A stretch of DNA of 64,000 bases from the NCBI GenBank assembly GCA_963704165.1, contig CAVPHD010000006.1:5497-69496 (forward strand), given 5' to 3'. The position numbers and the translations under genes are program-made. The stretch comes from an uncultured delta proteobacterium (GTDB taxonomy: Bacteria > Myxococcota_A > UBA9160 > SZUA-336). Below, one piece after another: positions 4,915 to 16,494 of this stretch; positions within the stretch are counted from its first letter, which is position 1; every line of letters begins with the position of its first letter. A model generated the notes under the pieces. It ran no database searches and had not been told where the DNA came from. It worked only from the letters and a program-made list of their open reading frames with translations.

Positions 4915-6543
4915 CTAGGCCTCGCTCTTGGCGCGCAGGTAGCGCGCGAGGAGCGCGAAGAATCTCTCTCTCTCCACCGGCTTGGTCGCGAAGTCGTCGC
5001 AGCCGGCGGAGACGCAGCGGCCGCGCTCGGAATGCATCGCGTGCGCGGTCAACGCGACGATCGATCCGGTGTAGCCGCGACTTCGGAGCAGACGCGTCGC
5101 GGTGTAGCCGTCCATGACGGGCATCTGCATGTCCATCAGGATCAGATCGAACGGCGTCCCCGCCTCGCGCGCGAGCAGCGCCCGCTCGACACCCTCTTCA
5201 CCGTTCTCACAGATCGAGATCTCGAGCCCGAGCTTGGCCAGCAAGAGGCGAATCAGGCGTTGGTTGTCCACGCCGTCCTCGACGAGCAGCACCCGCCCCG
5301 ACAGCCGGGGCACCGGTTCGCGTTCGTTTCCGGTGCGCGGCGTGTCCACGAGCTCCTCCGAGACGTGTACGCGCTCGACACCTTCGAGCGGGCCGGTCGG
5401 GAGCGAGACGCGGACGGTGGTGCCCCGCCCGGTCTCGCTCTGGAATTCGATCGATCCATCCATCAGCTCGCAGAGGTGCTTCGAGATCGCGAGCCCGAGG
5501 CCGGTTCCACCGTAGCGGCGCGTCGTCGAGCCGTCGGCCTGGCGAAAGGGAAGAAACAGCCGTCCTCGCTCGTCGTCTGCAATCCCGATCCCCGTGTCGG
5601 CCACCTCGAATACGATCCGGCTCGAAACGCCGTCGTCGTGGAACGACGTGCGAAGTCGCACCGAACCCGTGGACGTGAACTTGATCCCGTTTCCGACCAG
5701 ATTGATCAGCACCTGTCGCATGCGCGTCGGATCGCCCTCGATGCTCACGGGCAGCTCGGACCCGAACTCGAGTCGGAACGAGATCCCCTTCGCTTCCGAA
5801 CGCACGCGCATCAGCCGCGCGACGTCGCGAACGATCGCGATCGGCGAGTACGCGACGCGCTCGACCTCGAGCCGACCCGATTCGATCTTCGACAGATCGA
5901 GGATGTCGTTCAGGAGCGTGAGCAGGTAATCGCCGTTGCGCTGGATCGTGCGCAGTGCGTCGACGGTCGCGCGCGGCGCTGCAACGTTCGCGGCCTCGTC
6001 GAGCAACTCTTCGGTGAAGCCGAGGATCGCCGTCATCGGCGTTCGGATCTCGTGGCTGACGTTCGCGAGGAACTCGCTCTTCACGCGCGTCGCCTGCTCG
6101 GCGTGCAGCATCGCCTCGCGCAGCGCGGAGTTCGCCTCTTCGAGAAGCTCGATGCGATTCTGGTCGGAGCGAAGCTTCCTGCGCTCCGTGGCGTCGCGCA
6201 CGACGAGCGCGAATCTCCCGTCCTGCGTGGCCCCGAGCCGGTACAAGGTCGCGAGGCCTGCGAATGCGCCACCGTCGTGCCGCGCGAGCTTGAACTCCCG
6301 CTCGCGGTCCGGCCGCACGTCGGCCGGGGCCGAGCGGCTCTCGGTGAGCATGCTCTGCCAGGTCTCGGCGAACCCCGGCGCGATGAGTGCATCGATCGAG
6401 CTGCCCTCGACGATCTCGGAGCGGTGCCCGAGTCGCCGCTCGACTGCGGCGTTCACGCCGATGATCCGAAGCTCGCCATCGAGGGTGATGACGAGGTCGG
6501 AAACCAGCGACAGGAGCGTCACCTCGGCGCGCGCCAAGCTCAT
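4915..6543 (-). CDS. hybrid sensor histidine kinase/response regulator (PAS-HisKA-HATPase_c-REC)
   Basis: H-box SHEIRTPM. N/G boxes [25 protein letters not shown]. Receiver with DLILMDMQMPVMDG and ALTAHAM...ATKP. ATG 6543 preferred over the TTG at 6549 used by the track. Confidence 0.9.
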   Translation of the reverse strand: MSLARAEVTLLSLVSDLVITLDGELRIIGVNAAVERRLGHRSEIVEGSSIDALIAPGFAETWQSMLTESRSAPADVRPDREREFKLARHDGGAFAGLATLYRLGATQDGRFALVVRDATERRKLRSDQNRIELLEEANSALREAMLHAEQATRVKSEFLANVSHEIRTPMTAILGFTEELLDEAANVAAPRATVDALRTIQRNGDYLLTLLNDILDLSKIESGRLEVERVAYSPIAIVRDVARLMRVRSEAKGISFRLEFGSELPVSIEGDPTRMRQVLINLVGNGIKFTSTGSVRLRTSFHDDGVSSRIVFEVADTGIGIADDERGRLFLPFRQADGSTTRRYGGTGLGLAISKHLCELMDGSIEFQSETGRGTTVRVSLPTGPLEGVERVHVSEELVDTPRTGNEREPVPRLSGRVLLVEDGVDNQRLIRLLLAKLGLEISICENGEEGVERALLAREAGTPFDLILMDMQMPVMDGYTATRLLRSRGYTGSIVALTAHAMHSERGRCVSAGCDDFATKPVERERFFALLARYLRAKSEA

Positions 6544-10560: not shown

Positions 10561-11382
10561 ATGGCCGCTCGATTCGAAGGCAAGGTTGGAATTCTCACGG
10601 GAGCGGCCTCGGGGATCGGGGCGGCCAGCGCCCGCCGGCTGGCCAGCGAAGGCGCCCGGCTGATCCTGGCCGACGTCAATCGGGACGCAGGTGAGGCCCT
10701 CGCGAAGGAGCTCGGCGGCGGCGGCGACCGAGTCGGCTTCGCGCTCTGCGACGTGCGCGACCTGGCGCAGGTCGAGTCGCTCGTGGACTCGACGGCGAGC
10801 CGATTCGGGCGGCTCGACCTGCTGTTCAACAACGCCGGCGCGGCCGCGTTCGGCACCACACCCGAGATCGACCCGGCCGCGTGGCACGACCTGTTCGAGC
10901 TGAACGTCCACTCGATCTTCTACGCATGTCGCGCCGCGATTCCGCGGATGCGGAAGTCCGGCGGCGGCGCGATCGTCAACACCGCCTCGATCTCCGGCCT
11001 CTTCGCCGACTACTCGATCCCCGCCTACAACACGACCAAGGGCGCGGTCGTGAACCTGACCCGTTCACTCGCGGTCGATCACGCGCGCGACGGGATCCGC
11101 GTCAACGCCGTCTGTCCCGGACCGATCGACACGCCGCTGATCGCGGGAATGAAGGCCGTGCCCGCGATCATCGACGAGTACGCGCGCCAGATCCCCGCCG
11201 GCCGGATCGGCCGGCCCGACGAGATCGCCGCCGCCGTCGCGTTCCTGCTCTCGGACGACGCGTCCTACGTCTCGGGCGCGATGCTCGTCGTCGACGGCGC
11301 GCTGACCGCGCACACCGGCCAGCCGAATTTCCGGCGCGCGATCGAGGAGCTTCGGGGCTCGTCCGGCGGGAGCGGTTCCTAG
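10561..11382 (+). CDS. SDR family oxidoreductase
   Basis: 273 aa from ATG 10561, preceded by AAGGAGG; track start 10462 rejected. [22 protein letters not shown]. Confidence 0.9.
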   Translation: MAARFEGKVGILTGAASGIGAASARRLASEGARLILADVNRDAGEALAKELGGGGDRVGFALCDVRDLAQVESLVDSTASRFGRLDLLFNNAGAAAFGTTPEIDPAAWHDLFELNVHSIFYACRAAIPRMRKSGGGAIVNTASISGLFADYSIPAYNTTKGAVVNLTRSLAVDHARDGIRVNAVCPGPIDTPLIAGMKAVPAIIDEYARQIPAGRIGRPDEIAAAVAFLLSDDASYVSGAMLVVDGALTAHTGQPNFRRAIEELRGSSGGSGS

Positions 11383-11431
11383 GTTCGCAGGCGTCGCCTG
11401 GATCGCGTGGCGGGAGAGAGCCGCGCGGGCT

Positions 11432-12238
11432 TCAGCGAGTCCAAGAGAGCGACACGCGCTCGTCGGCGCCGATCCGCACGTGGGGCGCGGGCATGAGCCG
11501 CAGGCCGCGGCCGTCGCAGCTTCGCCCGCTCGCGAGATCGAAACGCCACCGGTGCCAGGGACACTCGAGTGTGTCGGACTCGGGCGTCGCGTCCTCGAGC
11601 GGGCCGAGCCGATGCGGGCAGAGCGTCGAGTGAGCGACGAGCGTGCCGTCGCCGAGCGCGATCACGCGGAACGGGCGGCCGTCGTATTCGACCCGAAGCG
11701 GCAGCCGCGCGCGCACGTCGGCATGCTCGCCGAGGTCGAGCGGTAACCGCCCGCGCTCGGGGAGCGAGCCGAGCCCTGCGAGCATGCTCTCGCGCCGGAT
11801 CATCATCGCCTCGTCCTCGTCCCAGAGCCTCGCGTACAGCGCAGCGTAGCCGCGGCCGAGCGCCTCGACGCTCGCGGACGGAACGCCGGGCAGCAGGAAC
11901 TCGACCCGGATCTCGGTCGCGTCTTCCCGCCCGGGTTCGAGCCGGGTCCGGATCTCGGAGCCGGCGCCCGGACCGGCGACGGTCGCGGTCACGTAGCGCA
12001 GATTCGGCCGGTCGAGGCGGACCTCGACCTCGATTTCGCCGGATTCGTCGGCACCGCGCCCGCGCAGGCGCGCGCGCCAGCCGTCGGCGCTGGACTCGAG
12101 GCAGCGGATCGCGTCGAACGAGCCGCGGTGCAGACCCGGCAAGTGCTCCCAGTCGAGCACGTTCTCCCAGATGCGCTCGAGCGAAGCGCGGATCGTGCGC
12201 TCGTAGACGCCGACGCGGACGAGATCGGTCGCGCTCAC
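11432..12238 (-). CDS. Rieske [2Fe-2S] protein with an N-terminal SRPBCC / ring-hydroxylating-oxygenase catalytic-like domain (permuted domain order)
   Basis: 268 aa from GTG 12238; the rest of track ORF 11432..13759 is shadow of the fumarase gene. N-terminal [14 protein letters not shown] fits E-x3-D-x2-H-x4-H. C-terminal [23 protein letters not shown] fits C-x-H-x16-C-x2-H. Confidence 0.8.
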
Positions 12239-12280
12239 CCGGCGATGATAGCAGCCCACCTCCCCTGCTATCGTTCGCGC

Positions 12281-13930
12281 ATGACCGACTTCATCTACCA
12301 GCCGATCTTCGAGCACGGACACGACGAGACGCCGTACCGCAAGCTCACCGCGAACCACGTCTCGACCGCGAAGCTCGACGGGCGCGAGCTCCTGCTCGTC
12401 GATCCCGAAGCGCTCGTGCTTCTCGCGCGCGAGGCGCTCGACGACGTCTCTCACCTGCTGCGTCCCGGTCACCTCGCCCAGCTCGCGAAGATCCTCGACG
12501 ATCCCGAAGCGAGCGAGAACGACCGCTTCGTCGCGCTCGAGCTCCTGACGAACGCGAACATCGCCGCGGGCCGCGTGCTGCCGAGCTGCCAGGACACCGG
12601 CACCGCGATCGTGATGGCGTACAAGGGCCAGCAGGTCTGGACGACCGGCGACGACGCCGAGGCGCTCTCGCGCGGGATCTTCGACGCGTATCAGCAGCGG
12701 AACCTGCGCTACTCGCAGATGGCCGCGCTCGACATGTACACCGAGAAGAACACCGGCACGAACCTGCCCGCACAGATCGACGTCTACGCGGAACCCGGGA
12801 ACGAGTACCGCTTCCTGTTCATCGCCAAGGGCGGCGGCTCCGCGAACAAGACGTTCCTGTACCAGGAGACGAAGGCGCTCTTGAATCCCGCGTCGCTGAC
12901 GAAGTTCGTGTCCGAGAAGATCCGTTCGCTCGGAACCTCCGCCTGTCCGCCGTACCATCTGGCGCTCGTGATCGGCGGCACCTCGGCCGAGATGACGCTG
13001 AAGACCGTGAAGCTCGCCTCGGCGCGGTACCTCGACGACCTGCCGACGACCGGCAACGAGCACGGCCGCGCGTTTCGCGACGTCGCGTTCGAGGAGCAGG
13101 TGCAGAAGCTCTGCAACGAGACGGGGATCGGCGCGCAGTTCGGCGGCAAGTACTTCGCGCACGACGTGCGCGTGATCCGCCTGCCGCGGCACGGCGCGTC
13201 GTGCCCGGTCGGGCTCGGCGTCTCGTGCTCCGCGGACCGACAGATCCTCGGCAAGATCACGCGCGACGGCGTCTTCCTCGAGCAGCTCGAGGCGAACCCC
13301 GCGAAGTATCTCCCCGAGGTGACTCACGCGGACCTCGGCGGCGAGGTCGTGAGGATCGACCTGCGTCGACCGATGCGCGAGATCCTGGCTGAACTCTCGA
13401 AGCACCCGGTCGGAACGCGGCTCTCGCTCAGCGGTCCGATGATCGTCGCGCGCGACATCGCCCACGCGAAGCTGAAGGAGCGACTCGATTCCGGCGCGGG
13501 CCTGCCGCAGTACTTCAAGGATCGGATGGTCTACTACGCCGGGCCGGCGAAGCAGCCGAAAGACCGCGCGTCGGGGTCGTTCGGCCCGACGACGGCGGGC
13601 CGCATGGACTCCTACGTCGATCTCTTCCAGAGCCAGGGCGGCAGCATGGTCATGCTCGCGAAGGGCAACCGCTCGAAGCAGGTTCGCGACGCGTGCGCGA
13701 AGTGGGGCGGCTTCTATCTCGGCTCGATCGGCGGACCGGCTGCGCGCCTCGCCGATCACTCGATCAAGAAGGTCCGCGTGCAGGAGTACGAAGAGCTCGG
13801 CATGGAGGCGATCTGGTCGATCGACGTCGAGGACTTCCCCGCCTTCATCGTGACCGACGACAAGGGCAACGACTTCTACGCGGACCTGCTCGAGAGCAAG
13901 CCCGGCCCCGTCCTGCAGATTGGGCAGTAA
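12281..13930 (+). CDS. fumA: class I (Fe-S dependent) fumarate hydratase
   Basis: 549 aa from ATG 12281. [49 protein letters not shown], and a C-terminal beta-domain [14 protein letters not shown]. Full-length single-chain FumA/FumB type. Confidence 0.9.
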
Positions 13931-14117: not shown

Positions 14118-14157
14118 GTCGCGGGGCGGGCGAGTCGCCTGGAGCGCGCCTCGTGAT
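14118..14157 (+). repeat. 40-nt relic of a LuxR-paralog 3' end plus start junction (37/40 identical to 15296-15335)
   Basis: Hand alignment: gtcgcggggcgggcgagtcgcctggagcgcgcctcgtgat versus gtcgcggggctggcgagtcggctggaacgcgcctcgtgat. It encodes ...GRASRLERAS-stop directly in front of the paralog-1 start, copying the paralog-1/paralog-2 junction. Confidence 0.6.
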
Positions 14158-15334
14158 CGCGTCGAATTCCAGCCGTTCGCAAGCGCAGCTGAACTCGCTG
14201 ATCGGCGACATCTACGACGCCTCTCTCGACACGTCGAAGTGGCCAGCGCTCTTGCCGAAGCTGCTGGACGCCGCGGGCGCGCACCGCGGCGGACTCGGCA
14301 TCGCCATGCCTGGCGACACGGCATCCGACCTCACGCTCACGCACGAGCTCGATCCCGACCTGATGGGGCGATGGCAACGTGAGTTCTCTGGATTCGACCC
14401 CGTCTACGAGCGACAGGGAATGCCGCCGGTGGGCTCCGTGTTCCGCGCGTGGGACGTCGTCCCTCCCGATGAGTTCAGACGGCTCGCGGTCTACCGCGAG
14501 ATCTTCGGCCCGGGTGGCGTCGACGACCACCTCGTGACCATCCTGACCCGGGAGGGCGATCGCAGAGCGTTCTTCTCGGCCTACCGGAGTGAGTCCGAGG
14601 GACCGTTCTCGGAAGAAGATGTGCAGGCGTACACGATCCTCTCGCCGCACCTCACGAAGGCAGCCCGAATCCATGAGAAGCTCTCCGCGGTCTCCAACGC
14701 CAATACCGCCCGGGAAATCGCATTCGAGATCCTGCCGTTCGGCGTGCTGGTGCTCGATCGGGACGGATTCGTCGTCTCGCTCAATCGAGAGGCGGAGCGA
14801 ATCATCGCGGCGGGCGACGCGCTTCGGGTCCGCTCCGCCCGATTGACCTTGGTTCATCCACACGCGGACTCCGAGCTGCAGCGGGCGGTGGGACGGTCAC
14901 GCGTGCCGCTGGCGGCCGAGACCGCGCCTCGAGCCAGCGTCCTCGCAGCACCGCGTGCGGGTCTCAGGAAGCCCTACCAGCTCTTGATCACGCCGGTTCC
15001 GCGGCCCTCAGCCGAGACGATCTTCGGCACGATACGCCGGGTTGCCGCGAGCCTGATCGTCGTCAGCGACCCCGAAGTCAGCGCTCGGCCAGCGGCGGAA
15101 ACGCTCCTGCAGCTCTTCGCCCTCACGCCGGCGCTGTCGCGGCTTGCCGCAGCGATCGCGGCCGGCAAGACCCTCCGCGAGTACGCCGACGAGGCGCGCG
15201 TGACCGAGGGCACGGCGCGCCAGCAGCTGAAGGAGCTCTTCGTGCGAACGGGAACGTCGCGACAGGCGGAGCTCGTGCGGGTGATCCTCTCGAGTGTCGC
15301 GGGGCTGGCGAGTCGGCTGGAACGCGCCTCGTGA
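14153..15334 (+). CDS. LuxR-family (GerE-type HTH) transcriptional regulator, tandem paralog 1
   Basis: 393 aa. N-terminal LIGDIYDASLDTSKWPALLPKL. C-terminal HTH LTPALSRLAAAIAAGKTLREYADEARVTEGTARQQLKELFVRTGTSRQAELVRVIL. GTG start. Confidence 0.85.
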   Translation: MIASNSSRSQAQLNSLIGDIYDASLDTSKWPALLPKLLDAAGAHRGGLGIAMPGDTASDLTLTHELDPDLMGRWQREFSGFDPVYERQGMPPVGSVFRAWDVVPPDEFRRLAVYREIFGPGGVDDHLVTILTREGDRRAFFSAYRSESEGPFSEEDVQAYTILSPHLTKAARIHEKLSAVSNANTAREIAFEILPFGVLVLDRDGFVVSLNREAERIIAAGDALRVRSARLTLVHPHADSELQRAVGRSRVPLAAETAPRASVLAAPRAGLRKPYQLLITPVPRPSAETIFGTIRRVAASLIVVSDPEVSARPAAETLLQLFALTPALSRLAAAIAAGKTLREYADEARVTEGTARQQLKELFVRTGTSRQAELVRVILSSVAGLASRLERAS

Positions 15335-16494
15335 TGTCTTCGAACCCCGGTCGTTCCCACGAGCGACTGGTCACGCTGATCACCGACATCTACGACGCCG
15401 CGCTCGACGCTTCGCGGTGGCGGGCCCTCCTTCCGGAGCTCGTTCAGTTCGTCGGAGCGACGCGCTGCGGATTCGGCATCGCGGCGCCGGACGACACGAC
15501 CACCGACCTGACCCTCACGCACGAGCTCGACCCCGAGCTGCTCGAGAGATGGCAGCGCGACTTCGCGGGATTCGACCCGGTCTACGAGCGGGTCGGCGCG
15601 CTGCCCGAAGGCATGATCTTCCGCGCCTGGGACGCGATTTCCGCGCAGGAGCTCCGGCGGCTCGAGATGTACGCAGACTGCATCTCCCCGCTCGGCATCG
15701 ACGACCAGCTCGTCACGATCCTGACGAGCTCGGGCGATCGCCGGGCGTTCTTCTCCGCCTATCGCAGCCAGTCCGAGGGGCCGTTCTCGGCGGAGGACGT
15801 GCGCGCCTACCACGCCATCGGATCGCACCTGGTGCGGGCGGCCCGGATCCAGGAGAAGCTCCACTCGCTTTCCTTCGCCGAGGTTTTCCGCGACGTCGCG
15901 TTCGAGGTGCTCCCGTTCGGCGTCCTGATTCTCGACCCGGCGGGCGCCGTGGTCTCGGTCAATCGGGAAGCGGAGCGAATTCTCGCGGTCGGCGACGCGC
16001 TTCGGATCTGCGCGCGTCGCCTGACGTTGTACTCCCCGGAGGCCGAGGCCAAGCTGCACCGGGCGATCGGCCGGGCACGCGCGCCCGTTGCGCCTCCGGG
16101 CCTGTCGCAGGCGAGCGTTCTCGCGGCGCCGCGTCGCAACGCGAAGAAGCCCTACCAGCTTCTGGTCGCCCCGATTCCGCCGCATGCCGCGGAGGCGGTG
16201 TTCAGCTTCGAGAGCAGGAGTCCGGCGGCCCTCGTCGTCGTCAGCGACCCGGAGGCGAGTGTGGCTCCGGCTGCGGAAACGCTCCGGCGCCTCTTCTCCT
16301 TGACGCCCGCGCTCTCGCGGCTCGCCGCAGCGCTCGCCTCGGGAAAGACCCTCCGCGAGTACGCCGGCGAGTCCGGCGTGACGGAGGGCACCGCACGCCA
16401 GCAGCTGAAGGAGCTGTTCATGCGGACCGGCACGTCGCGCCAGGCGGATCTCATGCGGGTCCTGCTCAGCGGAGTGGGGCAGCTGCGGATCTGA
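15331..16494 (+). CDS. LuxR-family (GerE-type HTH) transcriptional regulator, tandem paralog 2
   Basis: 387 aa, about 65% identical by eye to paralog 1 over the full length. The start overlaps the paralog-1 stop (GTGATG; GTG 15331 or ATG 15334). Confidence 0.85.
   Translation: MMSSNPGRSHERLVTLITDIYDAALDASRWRALLPELVQFVGATRCGFGIAAPDDTTTDLTLTHELDPELLERWQRDFAGFDPVYERVGALPEGMIFRAWDAISAQELRRLEMYADCISPLGIDDQLVTILTSSGDRRAFFSAYRSQSEGPFSAEDVRAYHAIGSHLVRAARIQEKLHSLSFAEVFRDVAFEVLPFGVLILDPAGAVVSVNREAERILAVGDALRICARRLTLYSPEAEAKLHRAIGRARAPVAPPGLSQASVLAAPRRNAKKPYQLLVAPIPPHAAEAVFSFESRSPAALVVVSDPEASVAPAAETLRRLFSLTPALSRLAAALASGKTLREYAGESGVTEGTARQQLKELFMRTGTSRQADLMRVLLSGVGQLRI

Follow-up and report, generated by a model that had tools for sequence, protein, structure and literature searches.

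A widespread, unnamed bacterial protein family with reversed domain order: candidate small Rieske-type oxygenases represented in an uncultured delta proteobacterium

To our knowledge, every described Rieske oxygenase carries its Rieske domain ahead of its catalytic domain and operates as a head-to-tail trimer, in which the cluster of one subunit feeds the iron of its neighbor. Whether an enzyme of this kind can also be built in the opposite order is the question raised by a gene of an uncultured delta proteobacterium (GTDB lineage Myxococcota_A; UBA9160; SZUA-336). The analyzed stretch of DNA (hereafter the window) comprises 64,000 nucleotides, namely positions 5,497 to 69,496 of contig CAVPHD010000006.1 in assembly GCA_963704165.1. 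The gene occupies window positions 11432..12238 on the minus strand, starts with GTG at position 12238, and consists of 268 codons followed by a TGA stop codon (11432-11434). It probably encodes a small Rieske-type non-haem iron oxygenase in which the catalytic-type domain precedes the Rieske domain.

Domain order and cofactor motifs

The initial annotation had described a protein of permuted architecture, with a catalytic SRPBCC-like domain at the N-terminus and the Rieske cluster at the C-terminus. This order was borne out by the Pfam match of the Rieske domain (PF00355, residues 169–240, E 1e-13), by the domain boundaries in the AlphaFold2 model, and by all relatives that were aligned, which share the catalytic-type-first arrangement. 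The N-terminal catalytic-type domain encompasses residues 1–157 (11768..12238; all features of the gene lie on the minus strand), as delimited by the model, the Pfam matches within the family, and profile alignment with hhalign. It is followed by an interdomain linker (residues 158–166; 11741..11767), which has no regular secondary structure in the model and is variable and gapped in the family alignment, and by the C-terminal Rieske [2Fe-2S] domain (residues 167–268; 11435..11740), which is supported by PF00355 and the family profile. The sequence of domains is thus not the canonical one with the Rieske domain first and the catalytic domain second. The catalytic part is small, as had been stated, although it measures 157 residues instead of about 165.

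The AlphaFold2 model of the monomer was calculated from a 32-sequence alignment and reached a predicted local distance difference test score (pLDDT) of 94.4 and a predicted template modeling score (pTM) of 0.84. In this model the N-terminal domain (N-domain) is composed of a strand (residues 6–16), two helices that bear the putative iron motif (20–28 and 30–36), six strands between residues 41 and 117, and a 37-residue helix (121–157) that carries D140 and D142, after which the linker and the Rieske domain (residues 167–265) follow. The predicted topology of the N-domain is a minimal helix-grip.

Both cofactor motifs are recognizable in the protein. The Rieske cluster ligands, C207-P-H209 and C226-P-W-H229 separated by 16 residues, are encoded at 11552..11620, exactly where the CPH-x16-CPWH site had been annotated, and conform to the pattern C-x-H-x15-17-C-x2-H within a domain of Rieske fold. 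The putative mononuclear-iron motif W24-E-N26-V-L-D29-W-E-H32-L-P-G-L-H37 occupies 12128..12169; its location had been given correctly except for the upper bound, 12166, which fell one codon short. At the level of sequence, the target thus contains (N/E)-x2-D-x2-H-x4-H together with a distal Asp. Conservation and the register with canonical oxygenases suggest N26 as active-site Asn, D29 as the Asp that bridges the Rieske cluster and the iron, and H32 and H37 as putative Fe ligands.

A third ligand was sought by the initial annotation in an acidic stretch, LWDEDEAMM, which was confirmed at residues 138–146. It belongs to the segment L138-W-D140-E-D142-E-A-M-M-I-R-R149 (11792..11827) in the long C-terminal helix of the N-domain. 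The stretch as a source of the carboxylate stood up to the analysis, but its first Asp did not: the carboxylate ligand is most likely D142 (nt 11813-11815) and not D140, because D142 coincides in the alignment with the Asp ligand of canonical enzymes and is kept in 71 of 74 family members, versus 59 of 74 for D140.

These counts were obtained from a set of 74 diverse members with a mean column identity of 29%. The sole invariant residue was D29 (74/74), followed by H37 (73/74), E25 (72/74), N26 (69/74), and H32 (65/74). The Rieske ligands were equally well kept, with C207, C226, and H229 present in 73 and H209 in 72 of the 74 sequences. In canonical alpha3 or alpha3beta3 assemblies a conserved Asp spans the ~12 Å between the Rieske cluster of one subunit and the iron of the next, and the invariant D29 is the candidate for this role. 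When all near-full-length members were considered, the complete N-D-H-H-D-D set was found in 178 of 202.

Since a wrongly assigned start could have hidden an additional domain, the beginning of the gene was reassessed. The 268-aa open reading frame was reproduced by translation from GTG 12238 (window 11432-12238, minus strand), and this start is backed by homologs whose N-termini fall on the same alignment column. The database gene call (P0002) uses a GTG at 12259 instead, which extends the protein to 275 aa. With neither of the two starts was an N-terminal Rieske domain gained, and none can be expected further upstream, as the in-frame stretch there is the shadow of a fumarase gene on the opposite strand. 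The possibility that the true start lies elsewhere and conceals a conventional N-terminal Rieske domain, which the initial annotation had named as one that would overturn it, was not borne out.

Affiliation of the two domains and known relatives

A profile of the C-terminal domain had its best match in mouse RFESD (3d89; E 1.3e-12). Ferredoxins of oxygenase systems followed at E values from 3.5e-10 to ~1e-8, with oxygenase alpha subunits interleaved from 2.3e-9 (KshA) down to ~1e-7 (SxtT, NdmA, DMO). The best-matching group, with E values of 1e-12 to 1e-9, consisted of RFESD, the CarAc ferredoxin 3gce, the naphthalene dioxygenase (NDO) ferredoxin 2qpz, and BphF (1fqt), and the CPWHGYRFD..TG loop of the target resembles that of stand-alone Rieske ferredoxins. 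No NCBIfam model fits the target protein; the sole whole-protein matches were weak ones to ferredoxin-subunit models, and the stand-alone ferredoxin models AndAb, MocE, and HcaC reached at best 25 bits as compared to a cut-off of 150. Judged by these profiles, the Rieske domain is of the low-potential ferredoxin/oxygenase type and lies slightly nearer to RFESD and the free-standing ferredoxins than to the alpha subunits of oxygenases. Stand-alone ferredoxins and RFESD are single-domain proteins of ~100–157 aa, whereas in the target the Rieske domain is fused behind a catalytic-type domain. In view of this affinity, an origin of the family from two fused genes, one for a catalytic domain alone and one for a ferredoxin, seems no less plausible than circular permutation through duplication.

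The affiliation of the N-domain is less evident from the target alone. The Pfam search suggested in the initial annotation identified the Rieske domain clearly, but the N-terminus of the target matched only weakly, with sub-threshold hits to VanA_C (E 0.028) and Polyketide_cyc2 (PF10604; E 0.012, 16.4–18 bits versus a gathering cut-off of 27.4). Family members were more informative. Among 37 diverse N-domains scanned singly, 32 matched VanA_C (best E 7.5e-9), 21 Polyketide_cyc2, seven KshA_C, six Ring_hydroxyl_A, and one LigXa_C. Five full-length relatives (P0038, P0066, P0089, P0111, and P0115) passed the VanA_C gathering cut-off with 25.5–31 bits, and residues 17–160 of P0038 matched positions 2–169 of the 193 positions of the VanA_C profile, i.e., through the long helix.

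Profile–profile comparison pointed in the same direction. The canonical side was represented by VanA-like oxygenases with the iron motifs NDNLCDLSHLDFVH and LENALDVPHTAFVH, which are encoded in genomes of the same lineage. Aligned with the catalytic domains of these oxygenases by hhalign, the family N-domain profile reached a probability of 80.4% (E 1.3e-5) over 134 columns, in a register that places N26, D29, H32, and H37 on the canonical iron motif and D142 on the ligand Asp in the “QD” motif of the canonical enzymes. The four motif residues are also in register with residues 177–200 of NdmA. Hand-checked Polyketide_cyc2 proteins of the same lineage, which served as a control for generic SRPBCC proteins, gave a probability of 8.8% (E 0.004) over 26 columns. 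On the strength of the Pfam and profile–profile matches, the N-domain is a trimmed relative of Rieske-oxygenase catalytic domains (~157 aa versus ~190–210 aa). The assignment of an oxygenase-type catalytic domain in the initial annotation is supported by these data, and its stated counter-hypothesis of a generic START/polyketide-cyclase domain was disfavored by the profiles, which lie far closer to the oxygenase side.

The canonical systems most similar to the target are two-component Rieske oxygenases of the alpha3 type that lack a beta subunit, namely the vanillate demethylase VanA, the dicamba monooxygenase DMO (PDB 3gb4), the caffeine demethylase NdmA (6ick), and 7qwt (Pfam Rieske plus VanA_C). 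These proteins share with the target the cofactor motifs CxH-x16-CxxH and N-x2-D-x2-H-x4-H with a downstream Asp, and their catalytic domains have the same helix-grip fold and are detectably homologous to that of the target family. The Rieske part of the target matched 7qwt, NdmA, and DMO in phmmer searches with E values from 1.5e-5 to 1.6e-4. The target differs from them by its reversed domain order, the shorter catalytic domain, a total length of 268 aa as opposed to ~330–370 aa, a VanA_C score below the cut-off, and the absence of an adjacent gene for a VanB-type reductase. KshA, the oxygenase component of 3-ketosteroid 9alpha-hydroxylase (PDB 2zyl, 4qdc), was matched by the Rieske profile at E 2e-9, and the KshA_C hits among the N-domains relate to the same enzyme; however, KshA shows the canonical order, has ~390 aa, and a steroid-catabolic context is lacking in the window. 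Generic SRPBCC and Bet v 1-like proteins (TcmN ARO/CYC 2rer, PYR/PYL receptors, and Polyketide_cyc2 proteins) were the best Foldseek neighbors, with template modeling scores of 0.6–0.75 normalized to the target and a likewise similar length of ~150 aa, but they lack both the iron motif and the Rieske domain.

In the full-text literature searched, which leaves out most subscription journals, no report of a Rieske oxygenase that begins with its catalytic domain was found, and this agrees with the initial annotation, which knew of no such example. Queries for reversed, permuted, or C-terminal-Rieske oxygenases retrieved just NamH and cytochrome b6f contexts. NamH, the mycobacterial UDP-N-acetylmuramate hydroxylase, has a C-terminal Rieske domain behind another domain (PMC10050696) and is the nearest precedent for this position. 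Its partner domain is of the UlaG/metallo-beta-lactamase-type fold, however, so that the catalytic part is not homologous to the SRPBCC domain.

Distribution and genomic context of the family

A word-indexed protein search returned 978 matches, the best 120 of which had 258–308 aa, 90–100% query coverage, and 50–77% identity. In the source databases the matches are named “Rieske (2Fe-2S) protein” or “nitrite reductase/ring-hydroxylating ferredoxin subunit.” An exhaustive HMMER search of 1.84 billion representative sequences yielded 1,501 matches with E ≤0.001, 113 of them with E ≤1e-30. The survey of this architecture across genomes that the initial annotation had proposed thus revealed a widespread family, with relatives encoded in at least 545 stretches of species-representative genomes. 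They occur in Myxococcota, Binatia, Alphaproteobacteria (Caulobacter ginsengisoli, Glacieibacterium frigidum, Sandarakinorhabdus, Parvibaculaceae, and Novosphingobium), Spirochaetales, and Pseudomonadales. In the class to which the window belongs, the gene was present in 91 of 151 genomes (63 of 104 high-quality genomes), in 88 of these 91 as a single copy, and the genome of the window also contains one copy. Since the same layout and motifs are kept in hundreds of species, the architecture goes beyond chance.

The genes around the target are arranged in the order Na+/dicarboxylate symporter (plus strand), ilvN (minus), ilvB (minus), short-chain dehydrogenase (SDR; plus), target (minus), class I fumarase (plus), and two unannotated paralogs (plus). 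Pfam analysis of the window confirmed the neighbors named in the initial annotation, a divergent fumarase and a convergent SDR without an adjacent reductase or ferredoxin. The class I fumarate hydratase lies outside the feature at 12281..13930 on the plus strand (Pfam Fumerase and Fumerase_C), and the SDR at 10561..11382 on the plus strand (Pfam adh_short_C2); the latter is not conserved with the family, and SDR matches in related loci were weak and scattered. Between the divergent starts of the target and the fumarase gene there are 42 nt (12239-12280), or 21 nt if GTG 12259 is used, and both promoters must therefore overlap coding sequence. The nearest Shine-Dalgarno-like GGAGG lies at an unusually large distance from GTG 12238, ~23 nt upstream, and a scan of 11250-12450 revealed no promoter-like or terminator-like site. 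The two unannotated genes downstream of the fumarase (14153-15334 and 15331-16494, plus strand) are tandem paralogous open reading frames of ~390 aa with a 4-nt overlap and similar N-termini. Neither had a Pfam match at E ≤1e-4; on reading of the sequence alone, their C-termini contain a putative LuxR/GerE-type helix-turn-helix.

For comparison, 80 related loci were analyzed with open reading frames selected by GC content at third codon positions (GC3). Clustering of six-frame open reading frames had seemed to yield a universal neighbor, which was rejected as antisense shadow frames of GC-rich DNA. A functional link to the fumarase was likewise discarded: the fumarase was found (tblastn) in just five of the 80 loci, all of them close Myxococcota relatives, and the pairing therefore reflects synteny and not an operon. 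These close relatives retain the fumarase and ilvBN around the gene, with the fumarase being syntenic in L083 and L085. The hydroxymethyldihydropterin pyrophosphokinase HPPK (folK) was also dismissed as a functional clue; it is fused C-terminally to one metagenomic family member (P0157, 462 aa), probably reflecting an isolated fusion event or two genes merged in the gene call, and no HPPK was found near the 80 loci.

Other contexts differ from clade to clade. In Sphingomonadales and Caulobacter (9–12 of the 80 loci) the family gene is the first in an operon of overlapping genes that continues with TIGR04282 and TIGR04283 transferases, both of which NCBI names “arsenosugar biosynthesis glycosyltransferase.” In Glacieibacterium frigidum (L087 8001-10029) the family gene and the TIGR04282 gene overlap by 4 nt and the latter overlaps the TIGR04283 gene; the same layout was observed in L026, L028, L032, L037, L039, L059, L061, L065, L067, L071, and L082. 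Near this operon are genes of a PNP_UDP_1 protein, an SDR epimerase, a flavin adenine dinucleotide (FAD) disulfide oxidoreductase, and an unclassified radical SAM enzyme that does not reach the cut-offs of ArsS, Rv1681, and HpnH. The operon may offer a pathway-based clue to the substrate. In the closest named relative, a Myxococcota metagenome-assembled genome (MAG) whose protein has 72% identity, the interval between the fumarase and the family gene harbors a cassette of arsR, a MIP channel, and a low-molecular-weight arsenate reductase (arsC). This cassette (L083 6823-8801, L084 991-2930) lies 44 nt upstream of the family gene in the same orientation and could be a second arsenic-flavored context or equally a mere insertion.

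In Myxococcota a recurring block contains an alpha/beta hydrolase, an acyl-CoA synthetase, an unannotated protein of ~405 aa, the family gene, a small VOC/glyoxalase protein, an amidohydrolase_2, and a CoA-transferase III (L072 1063-9883, L074 3035-9483, L060 1652-11132), to which luciferase-like monooxygenases are added in L060. The block resembles a catabolic operon that depends on CoA. In Parvibaculaceae a carboxyltransferase gene lies ahead of the family gene. A consistently linked reductase was not found in the loci of relatives. Elsewhere in the genome of the window seven matches to plant-type ferredoxin (Fer2) domains were detected, so that possible electron-carrier or reductase domains exist. 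The same genome carries, on another contig, two canonical Rieske oxygenase alpha-subunit genes side by side (G000:C4:90759-95345; L088, L090). The second of these appears split over two frames (L088 2020-3207, 1925-2800), which suggests a frameshift or assembly error. No VanA_C-type protein was found in this genome.

Weighing the oxygenase reading against its rivals

If the protein is an oxygenase, its Rieske cluster would be reduced by an external NAD(P)H-dependent reductase or ferredoxin that is encoded away from the gene, and the electron would pass via the invariant D29 to the mononuclear iron. The N-domain would hold one Fe(II) by H32, H37, and D142, with N26 in the active site, and O2 activated at this iron would lead to hydroxylation or demethylation of a small substrate bound in the helix-grip cavity. 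Besides the motifs and profiles, the catabolic-looking operons around some relatives, with alpha/beta hydrolase, acyl-CoA synthetase, VOC, amidohydrolase_2, and CoA-transferase genes, count for this explanation.

Several results weigh against it. The VanA_C (PF19112) score of the target, 15.0 bits for the whole protein and 16.8 bits for the N-domain, stays below the gathering cut-off of 23.5. A search of PDB sequences with the N-domain profile (hmmsearch) produced chance matches alone and no oxygenase, and the 50 best Foldseek neighbors were small Bet v 1/PYR/TcmN-type proteins, none of them oxygenases; judged from the model, these neighbors point to a domain pared down to the minimal fold and by themselves cannot tell an oxygenase from a generic START domain. 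A reductase or ferredoxin gene adjacent to the target is absent from the window, and no substrate can be inferred since the genomic context differs between clades. Finally, H32 is replaced in 11 of the 202 near-full-length members (~5%), by Arg in eight of the 11, in at least 5–6 independent events. One of the members lacking H32, P0119 (L085 8001-8792), is a Myxococcota ortholog with the same fumarase/target/ilvBN synteny, so that the complete triad may not be strictly required for the conserved function.

Members without H32 retain the ligands of the Rieske cluster as well as D29, and 10 of these 11 also retain H37. Loss of H32 tracks loss of N26, which is missing in six of the 11 as compared to one of the 191 other members (Fisher p 4e-8), and both losses of D142 fall in members lacking H32 (p 0.003). 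Phylogenetically independent pairs all showed the same direction and were too few for significance. Such joint decay of motif residues is as expected of one functional site. In our reading, a single putative site is intact in most members, including the protein of the window, and degenerate in a minority, and the members without H32 may represent a recurrent iron-free derivative of the family.

The points raised above also feed the main competitor of the oxygenase explanation, a redox-active ligand-binding protein whose SRPBCC domain accommodates a small hydrophobic or acidic molecule and holds no catalytic iron, whose Rieske domain acts as ferredoxin or redox sensor, for instance by supplying electrons to a second enzyme or by signaling the redox state, and whose oxygenase-like motif is an evolutionary relic reused to bind the ligand. 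It would fit the structural similarity to Bet v 1, PYR, and cytokinin-binding proteins and to cyclases, the proximity of the Rieske domain to stand-alone ferredoxins and RFESD, the dispensability of H32 in ~5% of members including a syntenic ortholog, and the lack of an adjacent reductase; the single copy in most carrier genomes and the housekeeping neighbors moreover suggest a general rather than a catabolic role. Yet a relic is not expected to keep N26, D29, H32, H37, and D142 together in 178 of 202 members or to lose them jointly, the only invariant residue, D29, is the one that bridges Rieske cluster and iron in canonical enzymes, and the profile is far nearer to oxygenase catalytic domains than to generic SRPBCC proteins. 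On balance this explanation is considered rather unlikely. Distinctly less probable still is a metal-dependent enzyme other than an oxygenase, in which the His/His/Asp site would bind Fe or another divalent metal and catalyze a redox-neutral reaction (hydration, isomerization, cyclization, or carbon–heteroatom cleavage), with the Rieske domain in a structural or regulatory role. Cyclases and dehydratases do occur among helix-grip domains, and the contexts with TIGR04282/TIGR04283 transferases, a radical SAM enzyme, and a nucleosidase-like protein, as well as the arsR-MIP-arsC cassette directly upstream in one relative, are atypical of aromatic catabolism. A merely structural Rieske domain is difficult to reconcile with the retention of each of its four ligands in 72–73 of 74 members, and the invariance of D29, the bridging Asp, suggests that electrons are delivered to the metal; we also know of no enzyme with this pair of motifs that is redox-neutral.

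An artifact of annotation or assembly, be it a misassigned start, a frameshift that masks a Rieske domain at the N-terminus, or a chimeric open reading frame, might be suspected in a GC-rich MAG with many long shadow frames and an ambiguous start (12238 versus 12259). It is refuted by the breadth of conservation and has practically no likelihood left: the same architecture of 260–280 aa recurs, mostly as a single-copy gene, in independent assemblies numbering in the hundreds, among them complete chromosomes and genomes of cultured strains such as Caulobacter ginsengisoli, Glacieibacterium frigidum, and Sandarakinorhabdus, and the region upstream is occupied by the fumarase gene on the other strand. 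The oxygenase reading could also be taken further, to a self-contained class of Rieske oxygenases in which a trimmed catalytic domain is fused to a ferredoxin-type Rieske domain whose cluster docks on the iron of its own chain, so that electron transfer would be intramolecular, no alpha3 assembly would be needed, and a conserved reaction on a non-xenobiotic substrate would be catalyzed. The usually single copy in ~60% of this Myxococcota class and the occurrence in many Alphaproteobacteria, Binatia, and Spirochaetales are cited for such a conserved reaction; as a whole this extension is a tentative idea that we regard as doubtful.

The analyses confirm a widespread, unnamed bacterial family and largely support its reading as a Rieske oxygenase with reversed domain order, an arrangement of which the literature searched contained no description. 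With its reversed order and a catalytic domain of ~157 residues, the family asks whether the quaternary logic of the trimer is obligatory, whether a minimal, engineerable scaffold for C–H oxygenation exists, and which reaction belongs to a gene labeled just “Rieske (2Fe-2S) protein” or “ferredoxin subunit.” The tight operons of some members offer handles for finding the substrate. Should the iron site prove to be non-catalytic, the family would represent a redox-linked ligand-binding module derived from an oxygenase.

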